A DNA stretch of 64,000 nt from Abditibacterium sp. (GCA_965246885.1 OZ251992.1:736001-800000); one strand, 5' to 3'. Positions 10,401-22,758 are shown, counted from the stretch's first letter. Made by a program: numbers and translations. Notes: generated by a model not told the origin, from the sequence alone.

Positions 10401-10487
10401 CTGGCCATTACGGGCACTTCCGCCGCCATCAAGGAAAACGAGCCGCTCATCGCCGCCATTTTCGCGGGGGTGAAAGTCAATCAGTGA
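7404..10487 (+). CDS. Large secreted glycoside hydrolase-like protein (GH-A clan) with C-terminal beta-rich domains
   Basis: Signal peptide; EVWNEF (acid/base) and LWQTEFNY (nucleophile) motifs; Pro/Thr linker before the last domain. Confidence 0.65.
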   Translation: MKLLKSAAIIGRLAALGAALSGSCARAADVPTDKTPGAWDGVTASAKLAEPYENSLQARAQTTGLLSYYEQPWRAYMDTWDARQWNDCLAVNFNVLPKDAEATAQVLADAGFKHARVEFGWGNFDYDKETLLSDKRQGMLDSLRLLQKHGLRPLLLLNSHHAAPCPFRNVFVELTADAKKGDKTLKVKDGSAIRVGYTGPMYGPEYCAAKPLVTKVDADGTCHLSTALADDLPAGRQPLWELKYQPFHGSKVTGASDAENAVWAASSQATMKGWERYVSETCALAQEALGTKGKPDAGFDLEVWNEFTFGSNYLNYNNYTDDKLAFAPFTYSHTRPMQAGYAPDAKRTFSYSGDASGEMFGRTCDFITSHSADFPGVKVDNGFLNQVPYGSGADSWDGQAAISRHFYTGNWVEINSKTARPDMGTIDALGNLDGTKGPKDYFDIVPGTNFIPTFRAGFPEWGFSAFQLEKTISNLLPDARLGGSRYSHNGDFHPVELWQTEFNYGRAAMFEAIFKDTHAAHDDPRMVALDDFIDGKFMLRSFVFQNHKGLKRLYMFAPVDAPFQIGMFSPAYFAALGKSGGKLTPDVRAHIPSAYAGLSWMSKQLGAADKLDAPRPLRVDGLTEYKPRLIFAGDGSAKHPDRFNRDWFAFLPYQLSANKFLVPYYVVVPDASKIWSPAKDPFDKTRYVMPDQEFDVQIGNCAGTGAKVSAYDPLTNTAVPVKVVSATGNSLTVRLQTSDYPRVLTVEEAKVGPQILDPRVTSDGAGKLTVSWKTNVPVNAAKVTYGKGWQNRGAQEVVLKGGVSAYSVSIPTGQKGILAARIKVTTNGLSDVWPRWDEDVQGQTVVPGSTPDDVKAAPSTLPTTPGGVAPAAPTPLVAPANVKLPVLETNATRGYRLGLPAGTTLSGPDDEREGNLGSGANAVRLRVRFLPGAAASAAQFLPATSAIDASSLRALTLPDKTAATLATFDLAEAAHPGMTNLAQRFLLVPTGKGNGDLLLLAITGTSAAIKENEPLIAAIFAGVKVNQ

Positions 10488-10665
10488 TTCCCAGACGTCC
10501 GGCGACGGCTGACAGGCGTTTGTCAGCCGATGACAGAAGCGCGCCACTCGCCGACAGAGGCGCGCCACTCGCCGACAGAGGCGCGCCACTCACTGGCAGA
10601 AGCGCGCCACTCACTGGCAGAGGCGCGCCACTCACTGGCAGACGTCTGTCAACGGCTCACCGATG
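10488..10665. repeat. 21-bp tandem repeat element (family A)
   Basis: Five near-identical units of g[a/g]caga[a/g]gcgcgccactc[gcc/act] from 10532, with degenerate flanking units and hairpin cggctgaca...tgtcagccg. Confidence 0.9.
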
Positions 10666-13119
10666 CGTGGTGGCGCTATGCCGACCGGGGCCGACCTCGT
10701 AGGAGTGCAGTTGGCCGTCCGCATCCCATGTGTTCAAATGGGCGCGGATGCCGTCGGGGATGTGAATGTCGAGGTCATGGCCCGCCCCACCCCCGTTGGG
10801 CTGGGAACGGAACTCGATAATGCCGTGCGGAGTGTGGCAGGCCAGCGAGAGGGCGCCCAAGTCGCCCAACAGGGGCGCGATGCGGGTTTCGCTCCATCCC
10901 GGAACGAGCGGCTGGAACCCCGCGATGTGGAAGAGGAGCAAGCTGAGCGGCGCCATCGGGCAGTGGCTCCACTCGCTGTTCGAGTCGGGCGTCGCGTGCC
11001 AGTCCTCTTGGAGGGTATTGTTCCATTGGACGGACGGCAGAGTCGCCCAGACTTCGCGCAGTTCGCGCAGCACGACATCCATGCGCCCGAAGCGCGCCAA
11101 CGCTTGCAGGCGCCAGATGGCGTTGGCGGGGTAGGAGTAGCCCATCTCCGGCGGGCAATCGGCCAGACTCTGGATGCTCGCCGCCCTCTGTACCGACGGA
11201 TAGAAGCCGAACAGCAGGGCGGTTGCGAGGGAGCGGTCGCAGGTGCGCGGGCGCCCTTCCTTGCGCTCCCAAGGCAGATTGGCCACGAAGAGGCCGCGCT
11301 CGGCGCACCAAAAGCGCGCTTGTGCCGCCTCCACGATTTGCTTGCTGCGCACGCGAAGCGTTTGGGCGAGCGACTCTTCCCCGAACATCTCGCACAGGGG
11401 CGCAAGCGCCTCGCGCAGCATCGCGGCGAGGTAGAGATTGAACGCGCACTCCTTGTGGCGCTGCTGCTCATAAGCGTCGTGGTCTATCCACACGGATGGC
11501 ACGCCCAAGTTCTCGACGGGCACGAGTCCGTCCTTGCGCAAGGTTTCGAGGTAGTCGGCGAAGCGGAGCAAGCGCTCGAAAGGGGTAGCGACGGCATCGC
11601 GGTCGCCGGTGTCTTGGTAGTGATGCCAGCAGTCGAAGCCAAAGCCCACGCCGTGATCGAGAAGTGGCCCCCAGCGCGTCGCCCCGACTTGGCGCTGCAT
11701 GACGCGGCACAGGCGGTCATAGCCCGGCCAGCAGTCGAGAAAGAAGCCGTCGGGCGTTTGGCCTTGGCTCCACGTGCGCAAGAAGCGGCGCGGGATGCGG
11801 GTGTCGCCGAACGCGGCGCGCAGCACGGGCAACTGGTGCCCGCAGTCGCCGGAATACTGTTGCCGCTCGCGCGCCATGCCGTCCACGACGGTTTCCTGCG
11901 CGCTGTTGACGAGGGTATTTAGCGAGGCGTCGAACAAGCGCTGAAGCGGCGCTTCGGAGCACACGATGCGCGCGGCGGGCCAAGGCGCGGAGCGCCTGAG
12001 TATATCCACGCGCTTCACCACAACGGGGCGGCTGTTGCCTCGGATGTGCAGTTGCAGCCAGCGCAAGGACTCGTACTCGAACGCCAAAAAGCGCGTCGTG
12101 CCTTCTGCGCAGACGACCTGCGACCACGCCCAGAACGGCGCGACCAACTTGGGCGGGGCGTTGGCGTCGTGCGCTTCGAGGTTGAGCACCTCGATGACCG
12201 TGCCTTGCGGCGCTTCGACTTCCACGAGCGGATACCCGACGATTTGCTCCGGCCACTCGAACGACAACAGGTGCGCGGTTCCATCCTCGGCGGGTGGGAC
12301 GAGCCAACCGGCGTCGGTGCGCGCGACTTCGAGCGGCGCCCCGACGCTGAAGCAGTCGGGCAGGAAGAACTCGAAGTAATCGCGCGGGTCGCGGTGCCAC
12401 CGGATCTGCCACGCGGCGCGTAACCTAAGGGCGGGGAGAAACTCCTCGCGTAGCATCGGAACGTCCCTTTGGAGAAGAACGCCTGCCCCCGGCAAAAGAG
12501 CGGCGTCGTTGAGGTAGTTGGCGACCCCCGCGCTCCCAGAGGGCGCATTGGCGGGGCCGGGCAGTTCGGCGGCGCTCATCCAGCGAGAAGCGTTAGGGGC
12601 GAAGTCGGGGGAGTTCGTGCTCCATCCGGCGGGGTGCTCGCGGGCATCAAAGCGCTCTTGCAGGGCGCGCAAAAAGAAGCGCGGCGCCCCACCCGGCGGG
12701 CGCGAGCGATCCAAACAGCAGCGCCAAGCGGCGTCCGAGACGAGTTGCTGGCGCGCGCCGCCGCGCTCTTCGATGTCCAAGCGCAGCAGCAACCCCGGCC
12801 ACGACAGGGCCGAGGTGCCGTCGCCGTGCCCGTAATAAAGCACCTCGATCCCTATGACATTCGCGCCGCGCCGGAGGTAAGCCGACAGGTCGAGCGGATC
12901 GGCTTCCAAGGCGCGCGGGTCACACGGCGCGGGGCCGTTCTGGACGCGCTCGCCGTTGACCCACAGCCGGTAGCGCGAGTCGGCGGCAATCCACCCGCGC
13001 GCCGCGAGCGGCTCGGCGTTGAGGTGCAGTTCGCGCCGAAACAGCGCGAAAGTAACGGGCAAAGTACGCCCTGCGGGCAGCCAAATCCAGCGCGCGGGCG
13101 ACAGGTCGAGGGGAATCAT
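10657..13119 (-). CDS. Alpha-L-rhamnosidase (GH78-like)
   Basis: ARWIW, IAADSRYRLWVNG N-terminal domain; DGMARERQQYSGD catalytic motif; C-terminal SHCP..P and TPHGII motifs. Confidence 0.85.
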   Translation of the reverse strand: MIPLDLSPARWIWLPAGRTLPVTFALFRRELHLNAEPLAARGWIAADSRYRLWVNGERVQNGPAPCDPRALEADPLDLSAYLRRGANVIGIEVLYYGHGDGTSALSWPGLLLRLDIEERGGARQQLVSDAAWRCCLDRSRPPGGAPRFFLRALQERFDAREHPAGWSTNSPDFAPNASRWMSAAELPGPANAPSGSAGVANYLNDAALLPGAGVLLQRDVPMLREEFLPALRLRAAWQIRWHRDPRDYFEFFLPDCFSVGAPLEVARTDAGWLVPPAEDGTAHLLSFEWPEQIVGYPLVEVEAPQGTVIEVLNLEAHDANAPPKLVAPFWAWSQVVCAEGTTRFLAFEYESLRWLQLHIRGNSRPVVVKRVDILRRSAPWPAARIVCSEAPLQRLFDASLNTLVNSAQETVVDGMARERQQYSGDCGHQLPVLRAAFGDTRIPRRFLRTWSQGQTPDGFFLDCWPGYDRLCRVMQRQVGATRWGPLLDHGVGFGFDCWHHYQDTGDRDAVATPFERLLRFADYLETLRKDGLVPVENLGVPSVWIDHDAYEQQRHKECAFNLYLAAMLREALAPLCEMFGEESLAQTLRVRSKQIVEAAQARFWCAERGLFVANLPWERKEGRPRTCDRSLATALLFGFYPSVQRAASIQSLADCPPEMGYSYPANAIWRLQALARFGRMDVVLRELREVWATLPSVQWNNTLQEDWHATPDSNSEWSHCPMAPLSLLLFHIAGFQPLVPGWSETRIAPLLGDLGALSLACHTPHGIIEFRSQPNGGGAGHDLDIHIPDGIRAHLNTWDADGQLHSYEVGPGRHSATTHR

Positions 13120-13169: not shown

Positions 13170-13310
13170 GATGGAGGTGTTTCTGCCGTCGAAATCCCGA
13201 TTTCTTCGGAGGAAATCGGGATTTCCTCTGAAGAAACCCGGATGCCGCGCAGGGGAATCGGTATTTCCCTCGAAGAAATCGGGATTCGCCCCATCACTTT
13301 CCCGACCGGG
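13170..13310. repeat. Degenerate 21-bp periodic element with 14-bp inverted repeat (family B)
   Basis: Units such as ccgatttcttcggaggaaatc and ggtatttccctcgaagaaatc; gaaatcccgatttc (13191) is the reverse complement of gaaatcgggatttc (13212). Confidence 0.75.
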
Positions 13311-13493: not shown

Positions 13494-13691
13494 ATGAACC
13501 TCGAAGAACGCTTTGAATTCGTTGATTTGGTTGCCCAAGCCGTCGTGGACAAGATGGAAGAGCGCGACCGCATCAATGGCATGGTGAACATGGTCGTGGC
13601 GCGCGTTATCGAGATGCAGCGCGCCGAAGCCGAACTCCCACCCGCCAAAGCCGAGCCGACCGCCACCCCCACCCACCCGAACGCCGCTTAA
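13494..13691 (+). CDS. Small helical hypothetical protein (65 aa)
   Basis: ATG 13494, host-like codon usage, amphipathic helices and a Pro-rich tail. Confidence 0.7.
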   Translation: MNLEERFEFVDLVAQAVVDKMEERDRINGMVNMVVARVIEMQRAEAELPPAKAEPTATPTHPNAA

Positions 13692-13727
13692 TTTTCCTTT
13701 TCGCCCGCCGGGAAAGGATTCATCCCA

Positions 13728-14378
13728 ATGTTCAACCACAACAGCAAGACCAAAGCGCCGGAGAAAAGCGAAGCCATCCCAGCCTCGTCCGACGCCGTTT
13801 CGCCCCGCGCGAAGTTCGAGGAAGAGCGCCTCAGCCGTCGTCAGGCGCTCAAAAAGCTGGGCATCAGCGCGGGCATCATGCTCGTCGCCATGCCCTCCAT
13901 AGACGAACTGGCACGCTTAGCGTCCAAACAACTTGCTGCCAACGCAGGCGATTCGGATTTGGCGAAATCGCTGCGAAATGCGGGTGTGGCTATGGCCGAC
14001 CCAAACAATGAGATTAGTCAGTATGGCCCTTTCCAGTTGGCGGACTGCGAAGAGAGGTGTAAGCTTAAAGCTGCTCAATACGTGATGATAGACGGCGTCA
14101 ATGTCACTGGAACATTAACAAATGCTACAGCGAATAGCCTTGTAGATTATTGTAGGTCTCATCACCCGAACGTAGCGGGTGGCAACTGGGGGCCATACTT
14201 GGATTGTCTAGTTGATGGATTGAACCGCGCTACCAGTGGAAAATATCAATCTGGAACGGATCGTTATATTTTATGTTGCGAGCAGAATTGCATGGATAGT
14301 ATTGACTATCCAAACGGCGGAACTTGCACAAGATACCTTGTATATAATCCGTCTGGAATTTACCATCCCGGGAGATAA
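13728..14378 (+). CDS. Twin-arginine-leader protein with cysteine-rich C-terminal domain
   Basis: SD aaagga; SRRQALKK followed by a hydrophobic stretch; AMA-D at residues 88-91; 8 Cys downstream. Confidence 0.8.
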   Translation: MFNHNSKTKAPEKSEAIPASSDAVSPRAKFEEERLSRRQALKKLGISAGIMLVAMPSIDELARLASKQLAANAGDSDLAKSLRNAGVAMADPNNEISQYGPFQLADCEERCKLKAAQYVMIDGVNVTGTLTNATANSLVDYCRSHHPNVAGGNWGPYLDCLVDGLNRATSGKYQSGTDRYILCCEQNCMDSIDYPNGGTCTRYLVYNPSGIYHPGR

Positions 14379-14380
14379 GC

Positions 14381-15494
14381 ATATTTTCTAAATCCCGCCC
14401 AAAGACCATCAACATATTAAAGACTTTAATTGTATTGTCCGTCTTTTTTTGTCTTGGTGAGATATTTAAGACAACCTCATGTAGTCCTGTCCCCGTTCAA
14501 CAGCATCGTCATTTCTTTTGACGGCTCACAGTTGGCCTCCGTTGGTTACGACACGGCGAGTTCCCAAGGAGTCCTCTATATTCTGCGTCCCAACGGAAAA
14601 CAAATCTCCAAGATTTCAGAAAAGTATTTTATGGACTCTCCTGCGTGGGCGGCAGACTCCAAGACACTATTTTTCTGCATCGACGGAAGCGATAAGCAAG
14701 GTCAAATTGTCAACGCAATTTGCTCGATGGATACCGAGAACCCACCGCAGAGGACGACTGTGGTCGCCAACCCTAAGATGCGTTTGGATCAGCCCGCCGC
14801 TTCTTCGGATGGCGTTCATCTGGCCTACATTCAACAGAACTCAACATCTTTGTCTGGCACGGTTTGGACGACGCGCATACGTGACCTAAACACCAAACAA
14901 GAGTGGGGCATGGATCCGTATCGCAACTTCAAACTCACTCGTCCCACATGGTCAGCCGATGGAACCGTCGTTGCGTTTCAAGGCAGAACGACAATGTCTG
15001 CTGACTCTGAACCGCACTACCTTTCAGAAGACCTCATTCCCTCTCTCGCTGGAGCGGGCGGATTAGTGTGGACAACCGCCAAAGACGGCTTCACCCCCCA
15101 CCTCATCCCCGCCAGATTTGCTGCTTTCGAACCTAACAACGATGGAAGCCAGTTCGCCCTAATAGGTGGGCAAGACAAGAGAGGGCGCAAGCATTTAATG
15201 CAGGTCGTGGATGCCAAGGGCACTCAAATCGCCAGCGTCAAGCGCGAATCCATCAGCGTGGATGTCGCTTGGAACGCGGACAATACAGCCATTTTCTTCT
15301 TCGACCACTTCTACAGCAAAAAGGATTTGGAACTGTGCCGATGGGACATCAAGACGGGCAAGGTGGACGTTCTGCAGGAACTTCCCACATTGCGCGGTAG
15401 AATTTTGGGTTACCGCAACGGCACGTTGTTTTATACGACGGCCACTTGGAAAGAGGACGACACCTGCCAGATCAACCAACTCCGCACCGACTAA
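14381..15494 (+). CDS. TolB/PD40-like beta-propeller protein; 5' end apparently disrupted
   Basis: Repeats SFDGSQLA, PAWAADSKTL, PAASSDGVHLAY, PTWSADGTVVAF; ORF 14430-15494, but GGAG-N6-ATA at 14381 and a T7 run at 14444-14450 suggest a frameshifted N-terminal anchor. Confidence 0.75.
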
Positions 15495-15500
15495 CTCCTC

Positions 15501-15978
15501 ATGTCGCTCAAGTTTTCTTCTCCGTTGCCCCCGCTAGAGGGCGTGACCCGTTGGGTGGGCGCGGCGCCGATGGATGCCGACCTTGCGGGGCATCCCGTGT
15601 TCGTGCAGTTTTGGGCGGTGTCGTGCGGCTACTGTTTGATGAACGCGCCGCTTATCGCCGGATGGAAGGAGTATTATGGGCCGTTGGGGTTGCGCCTCGT
15701 GACGGTTCACGCTTCGCCGCCTTTAACCGATGCACAGCGCGAGGGGGTCGGCGCGACCATCGAGCGCGCACGGCATCCTGACGCCGTGCGCGCTCGATGA
15801 AGACGACGTGTTGGGCGGACGCTTTCAAACTGACGGCATCTGCCCGCACTACTTCTTCGACGCGAGCCACCGCTTGCGCTCGCGCGCGGCGGGGATGCAA
15901 GGGCTGCACTTGGTCGAAGCATCCATCCGCCGCAGTTTAGGGTTGCCTGAGTTGGTGGTGGAGAAAGCGGGGCGGTGA
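15501..15978 (+). pseudogene. YkuV/TlpA-like thiol-disulfide oxidoreductase, frameshifted
   Basis: FWAVSCGYC motif; frame change at gagcgcgcac (~15762-15771) continues as HGILTPCALDED...YFFDASHRLR. Confidence 0.8.
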
Positions 15979-16017
15979 AGCGCCAAGCGCGTCGAGAAGC
16001 AGTAGCAGGAGAAAACC

Positions 16018-16692
16018 ATGAGACGCTCCGCGTTCACCCTTGTAGAAATTTTGGTCGTGCTGGGCATCATCACGCTGCTCGCCGCCATTCTGTTCCCGGC
16101 GTTTGCCCGCGTGCGCGAAGGTGGGCGCTCGGCGTCGTGTCAGGAGAACTTGCACCAAATCGGGCTGGCGACGGCGATGTATGCCGGAGACTACGAGAGC
16201 CATTTCCCCCTTGGCGGCGACCCGATTGATTTGCATTCCAATGTGTGGAGCGCCCAAGACGGGGGGAAGTGGGGCGCTGTCGTGCCGACGCTCAAACCGT
16301 TGCCGGGTGTCATGGCGCCTTATCTCAAAGCTGACGCGACATGGCGCTGCCCTTCGGACTTCGGTTTCAGTCACGCCGAGGGGCACCCGATGAGCCTTCT
16401 CAACACCTACCCCTCGTGCGCCGACAAGTGGGGCATGAGCTACTTTTACAACACGCGCTTAGCGCTCAAGGGCAAGACGCTCGCGGGCGTGCAAGCCTAC
16501 GACGACTTCCTGCCCTACGACACCTACGGCCCCGACCAGATTAGCCTCTTCTACGACGCCGATGGCAGTTGGCACGGCGGCGAGAAGGACGAGCGCCGTT
16601 ACAACGTCCTCATGGCCGATGGACACGTTAAGTCGCAGACGCGCGACCAGTTCACCACGCAACTCTTGCTCGTTCTCGACCCGCCGACATGA
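16018..16692 (+). CDS. Prepilin-type N-terminal cleavage / DUF1559 protein with H-X9-DG-like motif
   Basis: AFTLVEILVVLGIITLLAAILFP, SCQENLHQIGLA, WRCPSD, NVLMADGHVK; SD aggag. Confidence 0.9.
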   Translation: MRRSAFTLVEILVVLGIITLLAAILFPAFARVREGGRSASCQENLHQIGLATAMYAGDYESHFPLGGDPIDLHSNVWSAQDGGKWGAVVPTLKPLPGVMAPYLKADATWRCPSDFGFSHAEGHPMSLLNTYPSCADKWGMSYFYNTRLALKGKTLAGVQAYDDFLPYDTYGPDQISLFYDADGSWHGGEKDERRYNVLMADGHVKSQTRDQFTTQLLLVLDPPT

Positions 16693-17612
16693 GCGCCCCG
16701 CTCCACTTACACCGCTTCGCCGTCCACTCGTCGCTGCCGCTTCCGGCAGACCCGACGTGCCGGAGCCTCGCGGTGGACGAAACGCGCGACCGCTTGGACA
16801 TCTCGCTGCACCCCTTCGCGGAGTTGCCTTGCCAGTCAGCCCTCGTGCAAACCAAGGAGGTGTACGATTTAGGCGATAGCGTGCTGATTTGGGCGAACGG
16901 TTATGGGATGCAGGTGGACTTCGCCGTCAGTCGCGTCCGCAACTACCTCAACAGCCCCGACTACGCGCCGCAGATCATGAGCCGTCTGCTCAATGTGGGC
17001 TTGTCGGCGGCAACATATCTTCGCGGCGAACTGCCATTGCACGCGGGCGCCGTGTCGCTCGATGGGCAGTTCGTCGGCGTGCTGGCCGCGTCGGGCACGG
17101 GCAAGTCCACGCTCGTCTGGTCGCTTGTGCAGGGCGGCGCGCTTTTTGGTAACGACGATCTTGTGAACGTTGGGATGGGCGGCGCGTCTCCCGTCGCCAT
17201 GCCGTTGGTGTCGCTGGTCCCAAAGCTACGCGCGCCCAGCCTCGAAGCGTGCGCCAATGGCACGTCTGCCGTTGAGACTTACTCCGATTCGGGCGAGTTT
17301 TGGATGCACATCCGCCCCGCGCAGCGCCTGACCGAGCCGCAACCGCTCCGGTGCTTGTTCGCCCTCGAACCGGAGGCGGACGCGACGGACATCACCGCCC
17401 GCCGTTGGAGCGAAGCGGAAGCGTCCCTCCTGTTGCCCACGCACTTGCACGGCGCCCATTTTGGGCGGGCCTTCGTGGGCGCCAAGGCTCTGGACGCGCG
17501 TTTGAAAAAGCTGGCCGAAGCAGTACCCGTTTACTCGCTGTGCTATCCCAAACGCTTCGACCTCCTTCCGGCGCTCATTGACACCATGCGCGGGGTGGCG
17601 GCTGGGGTTTAA
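16689..17612 (+). CDS. HPr-kinase-related P-loop kinase (lasso-peptide-kinase-like)
   Basis: PLHAGAV, ASGTGKST, NDD (His-Lys-Asp-Asp signature); ATGA overlap with the upstream gene. Confidence 0.8.
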   Translation: MSAPLHLHRFAVHSSLPLPADPTCRSLAVDETRDRLDISLHPFAELPCQSALVQTKEVYDLGDSVLIWANGYGMQVDFAVSRVRNYLNSPDYAPQIMSRLLNVGLSAATYLRGELPLHAGAVSLDGQFVGVLAASGTGKSTLVWSLVQGGALFGNDDLVNVGMGGASPVAMPLVSLVPKLRAPSLEACANGTSAVETYSDSGEFWMHIRPAQRLTEPQPLRCLFALEPEADATDITARRWSEAEASLLLPTHLHGAHFGRAFVGAKALDARLKKLAEAVPVYSLCYPKRFDLLPALIDTMRGVAAGV

Positions 17613-17626
17613 TGTGTTGTGGGCGC

Positions 17627-19483
17627 TCAAGGCGCCTTGGGCGGCTCGATGAATTGGACGACGGCGACGGCGTAGGGGGCGAGGCGGATGGTTTGGAAGG
17701 GGCTTTTCGGCAGGTTCTCGAAGCGCACGCTTTGGCGGGCGTCGTCGAAGATGCGCAGGCGCGCTTCGCGCAGGACGGGGAAGCCGCGTATTCCCAACTG
17801 CGCGGTCTGCGGGGCGTCGGTGGTGTTGATGAGCCAGACATTGTGGGCGGTGGAGGTATTGGCGGCAACGGCGAACACCGCCTCGCTCGAACTTTTGGTG
17901 CCAACGCGCACGCTGCCCGACGGGAAGAAGGTGTTCCACATCCACGCGGCGTAGTAGGCCGGATACGCTTTGGAGCCAGAGTCGAGCAGGCCCTGTTCGG
18001 GGCTACTGGCGTCGGCGGTGAAGATTTGGTCGGCCAAGCGCGAACCCGACGCGAGGAACTGGCCCCACCATGCCCCCGCGATCATCTGCGTGAGGCGCGG
18101 GTCGTCCGGTGTGCTTGCGGGGGTAGCGGCTCCGGCGAGGCCCGCTTCGGTCACGAACAGCGCGGCGCGGGGAAAGCGGCTTTTGTCGAGCAAACCCGCG
18201 ACGGTCTTCAAACTCCCGACGGTGCGCGCGGCACTGATGGCTGCGGCGTCGCTTGCACCCCCATCCGGCGAGCCGAAAAAGCGCACGGACAGGAAATCCA
18301 GCCCGCGCGCGCCGCGCAAAAGCGCCGAGACGCTCGCGCTTTGCCCCGAAAAGTTGCCCGTCCCGCCGACTAAATACGTCTTCGAGACGGCTTTGAGGGC
18401 GTCGCGGCCCGCGTTGTAAAAGGCCAACGAGGTGGTGTCGTTCTGGTCGGGGCTGGCGGTGGCCAGTTCCCACGCGCGCACTTTCTGGTCGCGCAGGGCG
18501 CGCGCGGCTTGGGTGCACAGCGCAGCATAGCCCCGTTCGTCCAAGCCCCATTCGGGGGCGTTGGGCAAAGACACCAAGACCTGCGCGCGCAGACTCCGGG
18601 CGCGCGCCGCCGCAACGACCAAGCGGGCGAAGCTAAAACTGGGTTGGCTGGAGTCGGCGATATCCACAAGCGCGCCCGCGTCGAGACGTATCCAGCGCGG
18701 CGCGAGCACGCCGATGGCGCCGCGAAAGGCGGGGTTGGCATCCAAGACGACCTGCGTGCGCGCGTCGGCGGGGGCGCCCAACGACACGTCGGCCGCCGCC
18801 CGAATCAGGCCGCTCGTTTTGAGAAAGTCGGCTTGCACGGACACATCCCCACTCGCAAGGGGCGCACGGGTGGGGATGGGCGCCGGAGTCGGGGTCGGCG
18901 CCACCAACGGGCGGCCCGTCCCCCGCACTTCGATGTCGTCCACCGAAAAGAAGCGCGAACTCCACGCCCCGCTTTGCTCGAACTGAAGCAAATACACGCT
19001 CCCCATGCGCGGCGCGAGGGCTTCGCCGCGCGGCCCCCGGAAGTCAGATAGAGGAATGACAACTTGGCGCCAGCGCGGAGTGTCGAGGCGGATGGGACGG
19101 GGTAAGGAAAACGTCGCGTCGCGCCCGCCGATTTTACCGCGCAGTTGCAGCGTCACGCCTTGCGCTTCGCCGCCGCCATCCAGCGCGAAACGCAAGGTCT
19201 GCGCGCCCGCGTCGCTCCACTTCTGCCCATCAACGGGCCGCGACAAACTGGCCCAAGCCGCGCGGCCCGCGCGGAAGGTGAGGAGCGCGGCGCCCTTGGA
19301 TTTGCCAAACGCGCCGGGCGAAGTCGCCACGATGTCAGCCAACCCCACACGATTTTTGTCGGCGCGCACCCAGTTGCCCACGCCCGCCTCGAAGTTGTCT
19401 ACGGCGATGGTCACGGGCGTTTGCGCCTGAGCGCGGGCGCAGAAAGAAAGCAACAGGACGGTGGCGAAAGAAGTGCGGTTCAT
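17627..19483 (-). CDS. Secreted CBM11/CIA30-like domain fused to a GH39-like domain
   Basis: Signal peptide ending AQA; WRQVVIPLSDF; PTPTP linker; LDFLSVR and LFVTEAG; C-terminal LAPYAV. Confidence 0.6.
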   Translation of the reverse strand: MNRTSFATVLLLSFCARAQAQTPVTIAVDNFEAGVGNWVRADKNRVGLADIVATSPGAFGKSKGAALLTFRAGRAAWASLSRPVDGQKWSDAGAQTLRFALDGGGEAQGVTLQLRGKIGGRDATFSLPRPIRLDTPRWRQVVIPLSDFRGPRGEALAPRMGSVYLLQFEQSGAWSSRFFSVDDIEVRGTGRPLVAPTPTPAPIPTRAPLASGDVSVQADFLKTSGLIRAAADVSLGAPADARTQVVLDANPAFRGAIGVLAPRWIRLDAGALVDIADSSQPSFSFARLVVAAARARSLRAQVLVSLPNAPEWGLDERGYAALCTQAARALRDQKVRAWELATASPDQNDTTSLAFYNAGRDALKAVSKTYLVGGTGNFSGQSASVSALLRGARGLDFLSVRFFGSPDGGASDAAAISAARTVGSLKTVAGLLDKSRFPRAALFVTEAGLAGAATPASTPDDPRLTQMIAGAWWGQFLASGSRLADQIFTADASSPEQGLLDSGSKAYPAYYAAWMWNTFFPSGSVRVGTKSSSEAVFAVAANTSTAHNVWLINTTDAPQTAQLGIRGFPVLREARLRIFDDARQSVRFENLPKSPFQTIRLAPYAVAVVQFIEPPKAP

Positions 19484-19765: not shown

Positions 19766-20383
19766 TTATGCTTGGGAGCCTTCTATTTCCCCAACTTGCG
19801 ACAGGGTATGTGTCACGACGAAGGCGCTCAACAGGGAAAGCGGGGCGCCCACGACCAGTGGCACGGCAGCGAGCGTGGGCAGGGCTGCCGACAAACCAAA
19901 CAGCGTCACTATCCCACAAATGAGGGCGGGTGTCGTGAACGAGGGAAAGATGAGCGCAAACGAGCGCGCCGTTGCGGGAGCCGCATCGGACGACGAATCA
20001 CTCGAATCATTCAAGCTCGCCCGCGACAGGATGTCGGCGTTGGGCGCGACAGTTTCCAAGTCGCGCAAAAGAGAGGGCAAGAACTCCTCGAACGCCATGC
20101 GCGGCGATTGCATTTCCACAGCTTGACGGTAGGCGTCGTAGCGGCGGCGGCGCTTGGCGTCGAGCAAAACGGTGCGCGCTTGGGGCAGCAGTTCAAGTTG
20201 CAACCCCGCTTCTTGGCGGCGCGCGGGGGTGCGGTGGTCGCGGTCGGTTTGCGCTTCTTTGTAGCGGGCGTTAATGTGCTCGCGCAGTTCATCGGCGCCA
20301 AGATCGGTGGAAGCGCCGATGAGAGCGTAGAAGTCCACGAAACCGTCGGCGTGTTGCGCTCCGAGGGTAGGTTGGGTAATCAT
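19766..20383 (-). CDS. J-domain-like membrane protein lacking HPD
   Basis: DFYALIG...A..VLLDAKRRRRYD J-domain frame; C-terminal hydrophobic helices. Confidence 0.7.
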   Translation of the reverse strand: MITQPTLGAQHADGFVDFYALIGASTDLGADELREHINARYKEAQTDRDHRTPARRQEAGLQLELLPQARTVLLDAKRRRRYDAYRQAVEMQSPRMAFEEFLPSLLRDLETVAPNADILSRASLNDSSDSSSDAAPATARSFALIFPSFTTPALICGIVTLFGLSAALPTLAAVPLVVGAPLSLLSAFVVTHTLSQVGEIEGSQA

Positions 20384-20416
20384 AATGGTGTTCGTATCCG
20401 GGTTGAGCAAGTCGTT

Positions 20417-21940
20417 TTACGCGACGACGGCGCGCGACAGCATCTCCTGTTCGAGCGCGACGAGCGCGCTGGAGCGTTCGCCAGACAGGCTCAGAAGCGC
20501 GCGCCCTTCGCGGCCCGTGATCTGATCGCGGGCGAAGACGGTGATGCGCCCGTTTTCGTCGCACCTGAACTCCACTTCGATTTGCGGCTCTCCGGCGGGA
20601 CGAAGCGGCGATGTGTCGAGGTCGAAGCGCCCCACTGGGGCGGAGTAAGAGTCCATGTCGCGCGCCTCGCCCTCGTAGATGAGGACGTTTACGACGGCTT
20701 GGTCGTCTTTTACCGTCGTATAGCCGCGCCGTATCTCGGTGTGCGGAAGCGGCGTCAGAGCGGGCACGACCGGGTCTACTCTCACGTTGCCCTTATGACT
20801 GGTCGCCACGCCGAGGGTATGTGACAGGACATGCCCCACCTTGATGTCGGGCAAAGACCCATCGCCCAACAGTAAGCCCGCTTGGATGGCGGCGCCCTTG
20901 GCCACGCACTCGTCGGGGTCGAAGAGTTGCGGACGCTTGCCCGTCGCGCGCAGCAGCATTTCCCGCACCATCGGCATACGCGAACTGCCGCCCACGCAAA
21001 GCACTTCCGCGATGTCGTCCCATTCCAAACCGGCCTGAGCCAAGACGTTCTCCAGCAGCATTTCGGTGCGCGCGAGCAGGTCGGCGCACAGCGAATCGAG
21101 GTCGGCGCGCGTCACTTCCACGCGCACCGGAAGCAGGGCATCGAGGGCGCTCGTCGGGTTGGCTTTGCGCGCCTTGAACGCGATGGGAGCCGACATCCGC
21201 GCCGAGAGTTGTATCTTGGCGGTTTCAGCCTTGAGGCGAAGCTCCGCTTCAAGGGCGCCGTCGTGGACGATCTCTTCGCCCAGTTCGGCGACCTTTTCCT
21301 CGACGAAGTTCATGATGCGGTCGTCGAAGTCTTTGCCGCCCAAAAACGGGTCGCCACCGACAGCTAATACGTGCAACTCGTCTTGGGAGATTTCGAGGAT
21401 GGTCACGTCGAAGGTGCCGCCGCCAAGGTCGTAGACGAGAATGTTGCGCGTTTCGTCGCGGTTGTTCAATCCGTAAGCGAGGGCTGCCGCCGTCGGCTCG
21501 GAAATGATGCGCAAGACGTTGAGGCCCGCCATTTTCCCGGCTTCAAGGGTCGCTTGACGCTGGTTTTCGTTGAAATAGGCGGGGACAGTGATGACCGCGT
21601 CCGACAAACTCTCGCCCAGTTCAGTCTCGGCGTCTTGAACGAGCTTGCGCAGGATAATGCTCGACAAGAACTCTGGCGAGTAGGAGCGTCCGTCCACGTG
21701 CAAGCGGTGATCGCTTTGGCCCATGAAGCGTTTAACGAACTGGACGACGCGCTCCGGGTCGTTGACGGTGGACTGCAGGGCGACTTCTCCCACGACGAAT
21801 TGCGGCTCGTCCACGAAAATGACGGAAGGCGTGGTGGTGCGGCCTTCGGAGTTCTTGATGATGGCGGGCTTGCCGTATTCGTCCAAGTAGGCAACGGCGG
21901 AATAGGTGGTGCCCAAATCAATGCCAATGGCGCGGTTCAT
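20417..21940 (-). CDS. Hsp70 family protein (non-canonical DnaK paralog, lid truncated)
   Basis: GIDLGTT, TVPAYF, EPTAAA, DLGGGTFD, VGGSSRMP; only 507 aa. Confidence 0.92.
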   Translation of the reverse strand: MNRAIGIDLGTTYSAVAYLDEYGKPAIIKNSEGRTTTPSVIFVDEPQFVVGEVALQSTVNDPERVVQFVKRFMGQSDHRLHVDGRSYSPEFLSSIILRKLVQDAETELGESLSDAVITVPAYFNENQRQATLEAGKMAGLNVLRIISEPTAAALAYGLNNRDETRNILVYDLGGGTFDVTILEISQDELHVLAVGGDPFLGGKDFDDRIMNFVEEKVAELGEEIVHDGALEAELRLKAETAKIQLSARMSAPIAFKARKANPTSALDALLPVRVEVTRADLDSLCADLLARTEMLLENVLAQAGLEWDDIAEVLCVGGSSRMPMVREMLLRATGKRPQLFDPDECVAKGAAIQAGLLLGDGSLPDIKVGHVLSHTLGVATSHKGNVRVDPVVPALTPLPHTEIRRGYTTVKDDQAVVNVLIYEGEARDMDSYSAPVGRFDLDTSPLRPAGEPQIEVEFRCDENGRITVFARDQITGREGRALLSLSGERSSALVALEQEMLSRAVVA

Positions 21941-22758
21941 GGTGTGTCTCCTTCTGTTTTAGGGGCTTTGCCCACGACGACTTCGGTTGGACGCAGGACA
22001 TGGCCTTTGAGCGTCCAACCGGGACGCGCCACGCTTTGCACGAGGCCGTCTTGTTCCGGCGCGACGGGAACTGTCGCCACCGCTTTTTGTCCGTGCGCGT
22101 CGAAGTGGCCTGCCGGTGTCGGCAACAGTTCGACTTCGCATGTGAGAAGCGCCTGCTCGAACTGGTCGCGCACGAACGCGATGTTGTCGCGGACTTTGTC
22201 GGCGCGTAGCGCGTTGGGCGCGAGGTTTTGGGCGGTCTGCGCCGTCTGATGAAGCGCCATTTCACGGTCGAACTCTTCGAGTGCGTCGAACACGAACAGC
22301 AGGGGGCGCAGAAGGGGCTTGACGTGTTCAAATACGAAGTCGCGCTTGTAATTCAACATTTCGGCGTGCAACGCGTCGAAGAGGCGCTCCGACTCGGAGT
22401 TCCTATGCCGCATGCCCGCGACATCGGTGCGCACCGCTTCAAGGCACCCCTGCATTTGCGTGATGGCCCCGGCCATCGCGCCAAGGGCATCGAGCAAATC
22501 TATCTCGTCGGGCGCGTGCTCTGGCTCGAGCGCCGCCATCGGCGCGTCAGTGGCAGACGTCTGGGAACCATTCCCGGACGTCTGGGAACCGGCGGCGGGC
22601 GTCGGCGGAACGGTTACGGGTGGCGCTCCGCGCCCCACGACCCTCCCGCGAACGCCCGCGAGCATCGCGGACACACTGGGTTTGGCTGTCGGCGCGTCTG
22701 GGGCGGCGGCGGGAGAAGCGCCGACAAACGCCAATTGGGAATTGAAGGAGTTGAACAT
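21937..22758 (-). CDS. GrpE-like nucleotide exchange factor with long low-complexity N-terminus
   Basis: LLFVFDALE, FDAHGQKAV, PGW..GHVLRPTEVVV; ATGA overlap with the Hsp70 gene. Confidence 0.8.
   Translation of the reverse strand: MFNSFNSQLAFVGASPAAAPDAPTAKPSVSAMLAGVRGRVVGRGAPPVTVPPTPAAGSQTSGNGSQTSATDAPMAALEPEHAPDEIDLLDALGAMAGAITQMQGCLEAVRTDVAGMRHRNSESERLFDALHAEMLNYKRDFVFEHVKPLLRPLLFVFDALEEFDREMALHQTAQTAQNLAPNALRADKVRDNIAFVRDQFEQALLTCEVELLPTPAGHFDAHGQKAVATVPVAPEQDGLVQSVARPGWTLKGHVLRPTEVVVGKAPKTEGDTP

Follow-up and report, generated by a model that had tools for sequence, protein, structure and literature searches.

Small exported proteins served by dedicated neighbouring genes are known from several bacterial systems. 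LXG toxins with Lap1 and Lap2 have a conserved N-terminal export region, a variable C-terminus and adjoining small helical genes whose products bind the conserved region (PMC9600955). In the mau cluster (MauA, the MauB propeller and MauD/MauE), and in candidate Streptomyces mauD/mauE clusters for RiPPs (peptides ribosomally synthesised and then modified post-translationally), a long leader of the twin-arginine translocation (Tat) type sits on a Cys-rich small protein with a thioredoxin-fold neighbour (PMC7794033; for the resemblance in parts, also bioRxiv 10.64898/2026.03.05.709764). The redox enzyme maturation proteins (REMPs) TorD and DmsD are encoded by dedicated genes beside Tat substrates with extended signal peptides (PMC8428690), the Bacillus AhpA/AhpT (ykuU/ykuV) pair combines a 2-Cys peroxiredoxin, AhpA, with YkuV (AhpT) as its reductase (PMC5300871), and the lasso-peptide kinases PadeK, ThcoK and PsmK, which have a PsmN-type nucleotidyltransferase as companion, carry a His-Lys-Asp-Asp motif (PMC9266682). 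Traits of each of these meet in a gene cassette from a 64,000-nt stretch of Abditibacterium sp. DNA (GCA_965246885.1 OZ251992.1:736001-800000; the whole stretch is called "the window" below), whose copy of the cassette, like the mau cluster, also contains a propeller. The cassette is real and undescribed, is found only in Armatimonadota, and joins one conserved leader to hundreds of differing and, to judge from their sequences, cysteine-paired small proteins. We give an even chance to the reading that it encodes a polymorphic effector that is stabilised by disulfides and exported by Tat, and that has an anchored cognate partner for immunity or binding, a leader chaperone of one helix, a dedicated redoxin and an adaptor of pseudopilin type.

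An earlier note on this DNA, made from the sequence alone, had described six co-oriented, tightly packed genes on the + strand at 13494-17612, and open reading frame (ORF) calling bore this out. They encode, in order, a 65-aa helical protein, a precursor made of a twin-arginine leader and a Cys-rich mature part (the cargo), a beta-propeller, a redoxin, a DUF1559 prepilin-like protein and an HprK-related kinase; 36 nt separate the 65-aa gene from the cargo gene, 6 nt the propeller from the redoxin gene and 39 nt the redoxin's end from the prepilin gene, and the prepilin and kinase genes share 4 nt (ATGA). The cassette is bordered on one side by a divergent gene whose end is at 13119 and on the other by a convergent gene whose end is at 17627. 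The 65-aa protein has matches in 30 of 401 Armatimonadota genomes, 24 of them at E ≤ 1e-7 (the six weak matches, E ~1e-4, were treated as noise, and the four inspected had no leader), and a leader profile has matches in 24 of the same 401; 23 genomes are common to the leader set and the strong 65-aa set, although the profile was built mostly from leaders adjoining a 65-aa gene, so that this overlap mainly shows that leader-only genomes are few. Wide co-occurrence of homologues, which the earlier note had set as a check, thus holds across the phylum. All 29 of the 65-aa loci among named species genomes are from Armatimonadota, and metagenomes supplied at least 15 further cassette loci; neither the 65-aa gene nor the leader was found in the 26 other genomes of the window's own family, and no cassette relative was found in viral contigs.

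Among 53 loci tallied, 49 have the leader and the remaining 4 end at or shortly after the 65-aa gene. The 30 loci with at least 4.5 kb of downstream sequence contain the 65-aa gene in 29 cases, the redoxin in 28, the prepilin in 19, a 2-Cys peroxiredoxin in 16, the kinase in 9 and a nucleotidyltransferase in 6; most loci were found via the 65-aa gene, so its count is partly ascertainment, and some genomes contribute several loci. The 65-aa gene, leader, redoxin and prepilin are shown by these counts to be the conserved backbone, and the peroxiredoxin and nucleotidyltransferase are further members that are missing from the window copy. The idea that the genes form one system therefore stands for the backbone, but the propeller is variable and the kinase optional. 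Because close homologues of the window's cargo, propeller and kinase all lie on 13209-nt contigs, the evidence suggests that the window's gene layout recurs elsewhere. No published description of the cassette was found in the open literature (supplements and subscription papers were outside the scope), the main text of PMC12419801, which concerns Armatimonad and polymorphic toxin terms, has no passage on such a cassette, and none of the six window proteins matched the PADLOC anti-phage defence models.

The 216-aa precursor (13728-14378, + strand) divides into an extended leader (residues 1-90, 13728..13997) and a hypervariable mature cargo of 126 aa (13998..14378), and the two differ sharply in conservation. 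Among nine close homologues identity is 0.64-0.71 in the leader versus 0.21-0.27 in the mature cargo, and mean identity over 36 loci is 0.55 for the 65-aa protein, 0.47 for the leader and 0.16 for the mature cargo (non-Cys positions). The precursor matches 198 clusters at 50% identity, almost all via the leader (of these the best 150 were listed, two of which are unrelated long proteins). The eight Cys reported earlier for the window protein are confirmed at precursor residues 107, 111, 142, 160, 183, 184, 188 and 200. Of 153 proteins examined (leader parsable in 144), 129 have a mature part that reaches 45 aa and contains at least 4 Cys, and in 120 of these the Cys count is even (p 6.5e-26), as it is in 37 of 42 cargos read locus by locus, and 140 of the 144 leaders are free of Cys; even parity together with Cys-free leaders is a signature of disulfide pairing. 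The window's mature cargo is predicted as a four-helix domain (predicted local distance difference test scores of 79-96) for which a PDB fold search gave no match at E ≤ 0.001 and a second fold search gave as its best match a transporter at Z 7.2, which is within the range common for that tool. Tandem cargo arrays occur in three loci (L037, L047 and L164); in one of them (L037/L140, G400:C18:68600-78000) three tandem leader-cargo genes, with duplicated partners and a redoxin fragment, are followed by prepilin, kinase, nucleotidyltransferase and peroxiredoxin genes.

That the precursor has a twin-arginine leader was likewise confirmed: the two arginines (residues 37-38 in the window) are invariant in 28 of 28 aligned leaders and are followed by an h-region, and an AxA-type end lies at residues 86-90. 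In 119 of the 144 parsable leaders the arginine pair and this end are 59 aa apart, and in 17 they are 55 aa apart. Usual Tat signals are far shorter, the extra length here coming from ~30 aa of charged helix after the h-region. All 5 genomes that were checked encode TatC, and the leader matches Tat-signal clusters in the Atlas at 0.90, matches that we treat as leads only. Tat export of the cargo and disulfide bonding within it are both strongly indicated by these features, and we regard each as highly probable. Of the earlier proposal of a redox-matured, exported, disulfide-rich effector, the disulfide-type, Tat-targeted cargo is what stood, while the kinase proved optional. The same leader is also found on long Ser/Gly-rich or Cys-free cargos (L071/L138, G039:C564; L065/L139, G345:C2; and protein P0034), which makes it a possible general tag for the export of surface proteins.

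The 65-aa protein (13494..13691, + strand; conserved and directly 5' of the leader gene) is, as had been claimed, helical, with a single helix over residues 3-47 of the predicted structure; it has no match in the domain and family libraries and an Atlas score of at most 0.78, and the leader, the 65-aa protein and the kinase, each used as a query against PDB sequences, returned nothing significant. Its similarity between loci follows that of the leader (rho 0.53) and not that of the cargo (0.05; 36 loci), and the same is true of the redoxin (0.44 and 0.14; n = 29) and the prepilin (0.46 and 0.09; n = 21), although saturation of the cargo by itself depresses the cargo values, so that the specific swap cases described below weigh more. 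We infer that the 65-aa protein is a leader-binding chaperone. One 336-aa gene call (protein P0132) fuses a LuxR-type helix-turn-helix domain (PF00196), the 65-aa protein and the leader; it is a single record and may be a read-through call.

The gene 3' of the cargo varies from locus to locus and is usually low in guanine-cytosine (GC) content, membrane-anchored and TPR- or HEAT-like. TPR or HEAT matches were obtained for 11 of 20 hand-picked genes from this slot, and an N-terminal hydrophobic stretch is present in 32 of 41 automatically picked partners, several of the remainder being mis-picks. Mean GC falls from 0.61 in the leader to 0.51 in the mature cargo and 0.46 in the partner, and partner GC is below redoxin GC in 33 of 33 loci; in the window, GC is 0.42-0.50 across ~14000-14900 (mature cargo plus the initial portion of the propeller) versus 0.625 genome-wide. 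The window's occupant of the slot (14381..15494, + strand; main ORF 14430-15494, frameshifted) is a beta-propeller with an N-terminal membrane anchor; its PD40 and TolB-type matches uphold the earlier call of a TolB-like propeller, but the gene is broken, and among the loci read a propeller fills the slot only in this window. Identity among seven homologues is 0.24-0.33 over residues 1-160 and 0.68-0.72 over residues 281-354. The suggestion that the propeller is a partner or immunity protein thus survives for the slot, since the post-cargo gene behaves as such, while the propeller is one of many fillers. Partner genes are stacked in three loci (L163, L167 and L170). Glycosyltransferase-like genes, recognised by eye, occur in or after the cassette in five loci (L040, L163, L165, L166 and L173), in which the redoxin lies upstream.

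Exchange of cargo and partner is best seen in loci L041 and L043, which share 68% of the mature cargo. Their partners, of a near-identical family, are more alike than any other pair, yet the two leaders are only 46% alike; each of these leaders is 78% alike to a leader that bears an unrelated cargo. In the 435 pairs formed by 30 loci, 5 share both cargo and partner where permutation gives 0.5 (p 2e-4), one of the five being a tandem duplicate and one a pair of close relatives, and 38 of 45 close-leader pairs share neither; 12 rows had been left out of this test for lack of a pick, weak hydrophobicity, one mis-pick and one duplicate. These comparisons show cargo and partner moving between leader backbones as one unit. 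Module exchange, the cassette's main feature and one that a single window does not reveal, together with the cassette's architecture, cargo hypervariability and Cys parity, is the observed part of our case.

From these observations we put together the following mechanism. The 65-aa helix would bind the extra helical insert of the leader and hold the precursor until it is folded, while a dedicated CPxC redoxin, often with a 2-Cys peroxiredoxin, would control the cargo's thiol state within the cytoplasm. Tat would then move the precursor across the membrane, signal peptidase would cut at the AxA site, and the DUF1559 pseudopilin would couple the cargo to a secretin or pilus machine for release or display. 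At the inner membrane's outer face the anchored partner would bind its own cargo, specificity would be swapped when the conserved flanks recombine, and the kinase and nucleotidyltransferase would serve as an optional tailoring pair.

Several results weigh against an effector with cognate immunity. No known toxin family or fold was found among the cargos (51 members searched with Pfam and NCBIfam, which gave no consistent family; folds searched with the window cargo model, with no clear match), 31 of 42 cargos are net negative, unlike cationic antimicrobial peptides, and the Ser/Gly-rich cargos of L065 and L071 have almost no Cys in their visible part and P0034 has none. The link between cargo and partner is also loose: 15 of 20 partner-similar pairs have no common cargo, 6 of 11 cargo-similar pairs have no common picked partner (one of the six is a wrong pick), the overall cargo-partner correlation is 0.003, so that there is no strict lock and key, and adjacent genes co-move whether their products bind or not. 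The third cargo of L037 and the cargo of L059 are followed directly by the prepilin, and in the window the partner gene is broken while the cargo gene is intact. As regards export, Tat hidden Markov models give weak support (TIGR01409 scores 15.3 bits on the window leader, below its cut-off of 16.7; 7 of 51 members match at E ≤ 0.1, the best at 0.0021), PF10518 has no match among the 51 cassette precursors, and the usual Phe of the Tat motif is Ala in the window leader.

The prepilin brings in the strongest of the other explanations, in which the same export backbone delivers a recognition or adhesion molecule (either a signal of kinship or a protein that varies and sits at the pilus tip on the DUF1559 pilin), the partner serves it as receptor or as assembly chaperone, and cargo variation escapes phages or marks kin; we hold this to be possible, at something like one chance in four. 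The window's prepilin (16018..16692, + strand) exceeds the cut-offs for PF07596 (40.2 bits, cut-off 23.3) and the N-methylation motif PF07963 (23.1 bits, cut-off 21.2), in agreement with the earlier assignment as a DUF1559 prepilin-like gene, and falls below that for TIGR04294 (15.5 bits, cut-off 19). It is one of 64 DUF1559-type matches in its genome and belongs to a cassette-specific subfamily: a profile trained on the other cassette copies gives it 265 bits versus 133 for the next paralogue, and a fast tree needs 2 changes of cassette label versus 18 when labels are shuffled. A dedicated prepilin in 19 of 30 loci is what a recognition or adhesion molecule would lead one to expect, as are the generic TPR, HEAT and propeller partners, the acidic cargos, the Ser/Gly-rich cargos on the same leader and a broken partner beside an intact cargo; the prepilin is, however, missing nearby in the other 11 loci, the partners have no evident cytoplasmic signalling domain (among the loci read and the slot genes scanned), and stacks of low-GC partner genes are what immunity arrays usually look like. 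One further locus (L154, G074:C3:77000-81500) has prepilin, kinase and nucleotidyltransferase genes in a row without leader or lasso genes; this trio is a candidate pilin phospho-modification module and, being cargo-less, fits pilin modification and hence the recognition or adhesion alternative. All 5 genomes that were checked have secretins, and a gene that is presumably a GspE/PilB-type ATPase lies beside four cassettes in three genomes (L045, L046, L051 and L057).

The kinase gene (16689..17612, + strand; weak TIGR04352/TIGR04355 matches) has everything reported of it, namely an HPr-kinase-related product, the ATGA overlap and the His-Lys-Asp-Asp motif, whose residues (His118, Lys139, Asp156 and Asp157) are kept in 12 of 12 aligned sequences. 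It invites the explanation, nearest to what the earlier note proposed, that the cassette is a RiPP-like pathway in which the 65-aa protein and enzymes are brought in by the leader, and kinase and nucleotidyltransferase phosphorylate or glycosylate the cargo as the core step. The intact motif agrees with this, as do the nine cassette kinases, which a branch with support 99 sets apart in a quick tree, the presence of the kinase in all six nucleotidyltransferase loci, and a locus (L048) with kinase, nucleotidyltransferase and cargo and no prepilin; PsmK/PsmN-type pairs modify lasso precursors, according to PMC9266682. We nonetheless consider it unlikely, roughly one chance in eight, in view of the 21 of 30 loci that are missing the kinase, a C-terminal Ser in only 1 of 9 cargos from kinase loci (2 of 33 elsewhere; two kinase loci were unparsed for this count), a 65-aa protein that is one predicted helix and not an RRE (RiPP recognition element) or PqqD fold, and window genes that give no match to a cyclase, B2 protease or PqqD. 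The earlier statement that no lasso cyclase, B2 protease or PqqD/RRE is visible holds for the window genes and extends to the recurrent neighbours, and the same library detects lasso genes in locus L155. Its suggestion that the kinase possibly phosphorylates the cargo keeps the intact motif in its favour, but the kinase is present in only 9 of 30 loci and there is no sign of action on the cargo. Nor does the kinase consistently sit in ordinary lasso clusters: of its 10 strongest matches in the 401 genomes, 8 are in cassettes, 1 is in a full lasso cluster and 1, that of L154, follows a prepilin gene in a locus that has a nucleotidyltransferase but lacks a leader. The kinase is an inherited, optional recruit of lasso type, and its substrate may be the pilin. 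Lasso-peptide clusters with a kinase were seen in L155 (G015:C40; NCBIfam-confirmed) and, read by eye, in the window's own genome (L159, G000:C2:13300-19800), and a recurrent gene that we take to be an AbiEii-type nucleotidyltransferase lies in or beside five cassettes (L047, L054, L057, L060 and L065).

The redoxin gene (15501..15978, + strand) was described earlier as YkuV-like with a CGYC motif, and both descriptions stand, although the window gene is frameshifted near 15765-15770. An intact cassette redoxin matches Bacillus YkuV (2b5x) at E 3e-28 with full-length homology and the CxxC motif; the motif is C-P-x-C in 23 of 23 aligned cassette copies, the window copy having CGYC, and no signal peptide was seen in the copies read, and the window gene encodes a cytoplasmic YkuV/AhpT-like redoxin. 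Because the family is present in 94 of the 401 phylum genomes, the cassette redoxin is a recruited housekeeping family; genomes with several cassettes hold several copies. Among 20 further hand-picked redoxins, 14 form one clade (support 97/88) whose motif is C[YH][IL]C and in which 10 copies adjoin a peroxiredoxin, and the other 6 have CPxC and fall among the cassette copies in the tree, mostly at contig ends and 4 with a cassette prepilin. An oxidative-stress or metal operon, in which an AhpA/AhpT (YkuU/YkuV) peroxide pair accompanies an exported Cys-rich thiol or metal buffer, could claim the YkuV homology (YkuV reduces AhpA; PMC5300871), the 2-Cys peroxiredoxin in 16 of 30 loci and the 94 genomes with the family, but is very improbable given the separate C[YH][IL]C clade of the housekeeping enzymes versus CPxC in cassette copies, even Cys counts with free spacing that point to disulfides and not metal sites, and a hypervariable cargo with swapped partners that it leaves unexplained. 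A bolder version of the effector reading is doubtful, at perhaps one chance in five: a new effector class of hundreds of unrelated disulfide-rich helical miniproteins that would be oxidatively folded in the cytoplasm by a dedicated peroxiredoxin-to-YkuV relay with peroxide as electron sink, kept on their extended Tat leader by a one-helix chaperone, exported in the folded state and passed to a DUF1559 pseudopilin for delivery. VKOR is present in 5 of 5 genomes checked, and periplasmic oxidation is therefore available and cytoplasmic oxidation not required; MauE-like genes are present in 4 of the 5 and DsbB in none.

Two genes of the window copy are broken, which the earlier note had missed. 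The redoxin is split into a 99-aa ORF (15501-15800) that includes CGYC and a C-terminal piece in another frame that ends at 15978, and the propeller's N-terminal membrane anchor, found in 6 of 6 propeller homologues, is out of frame at a T7 run (14444-14450). Contigs that hold the region in both sequencing runs have no gaps at either site, so sequencing error is unsupported as the cause (both runs belong to a single study, and the assembly may derive from one of them), and gene breaks are seen in other cassette loci too. Because redoxin and partner anchor are both broken, decay or a phase-off state is probable for this copy. Differences in depth hint at a co-occurring strain with a different upstream allele, as does a contig of run X2 whose match is confined to 15097-15277 and which diverges upstream, although contig depth cannot show it.

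No Rfam match, consensus promoter or terminator excess was found. Imperfect repeats with 21-nt spacing lie 5' of the cassette (13176..13286), and 10 of 32 cassettes have exact tandem repeats with units of 14-30 nt in the 250 nt 5' of their 65-aa gene (L038, L039, L041, L042, L043, L051, L057, L058, L062 and L064), versus 24 of 1201 and 2 of 581 control windows, which are mostly coding; expression tuning is a possible role. Elsewhere in the window, three genes in a row on the - strand (19766-22758) look like a specialised chaperone trio, the first being GrpE-like, another an Hsp70 paralogue and the third coding for a small membrane protein that presumably has a J-domain-like start, and a short tandem repeat with repetitive translations (10484-10702) lies between genes for a 1027-aa secreted protein and a rhamnosidase-like protein.

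With its 198 clusters at 50% identity, the cassette stands for a large, uncharted set of small proteins of disulfide type, in a phylum that has hardly been studied. If the toxin-immunity reading is true, it adds a Tat-based, disulfide-rich class to the polymorphic effectors, and if the peroxiredoxin-YkuV relay and DUF1559 delivery are true, it would hold the first substrate-linked DUF1559 function and a natural library of disulfide scaffolds. It makes testable how a disulfide-rich Tat substrate gains its bonds with only cytoplasmic redox enzymes adjoining, and what the numerous DUF1559 proteins do, since one subfamily is here tied to a defined cargo; the 65-aa protein and leader could also become a portable export tag for disulfide-rich proteins.

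Compared with the systems introduced at the outset, the cassette falls outside the LXG, MauA and lasso clusters. Likeness of the leaders to MauA is weak (TIGR02659 matches 4 of 51 at E ≤ 0.1, one leader reaching E 0.007, with a best score of 16 bits against a cut-off of 197, plus one Atlas feature match), and because the mature part is hypervariable, with no Trp in 19 of 42 cargos and one in 11, where MauA has a conserved domain with two cofactor-forming Trp, the cargos have no tryptophan tryptophylquinone cofactor; unlike the mau cluster, the cassette has no MauE or MauG among its recurrent neighbours, its propeller is not constant and its redoxin has no membrane anchor. With the Bacillus AhpA/AhpT pair the cassette shares a YkuV homologue together with a 2-Cys peroxiredoxin, the two often lying side by side. 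The pair differs in that the cassette redoxins are extra CPxC paralogues tied to the cargo backbone (rho 0.44 to the leader) and are present in 28 of 30 loci, whereas the peroxiredoxin is present in only 16. With the lasso kinases the cassette kinase has in common its motif, a nucleotidyltransferase neighbour in 6 of 9 cases and a close relative in the full lasso cluster L155, but the cassette is without lasso machinery and a conserved C-terminal Ser in the cargo, and its kinase is optional. In contrast to the REMPs, the 65-aa protein is a predicted 45-residue single helix without family match, the leader extension follows the h-region, and a chaperone role is putative. No LXG match was found among the cassette precursors, and WXG100 was found in none of 5 genomes (a control matched in 3 of 14). 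Where LXG toxins are concerned, the cassette differs by its twin-arginine leader, its cargos of 50-130 aa that are of disulfide type and without known toxin domain, and the addition of redoxin, peroxiredoxin and DUF1559 pilin; like polymorphic toxins generally, it has a variable downstream partner and undergoes cassette swapping.

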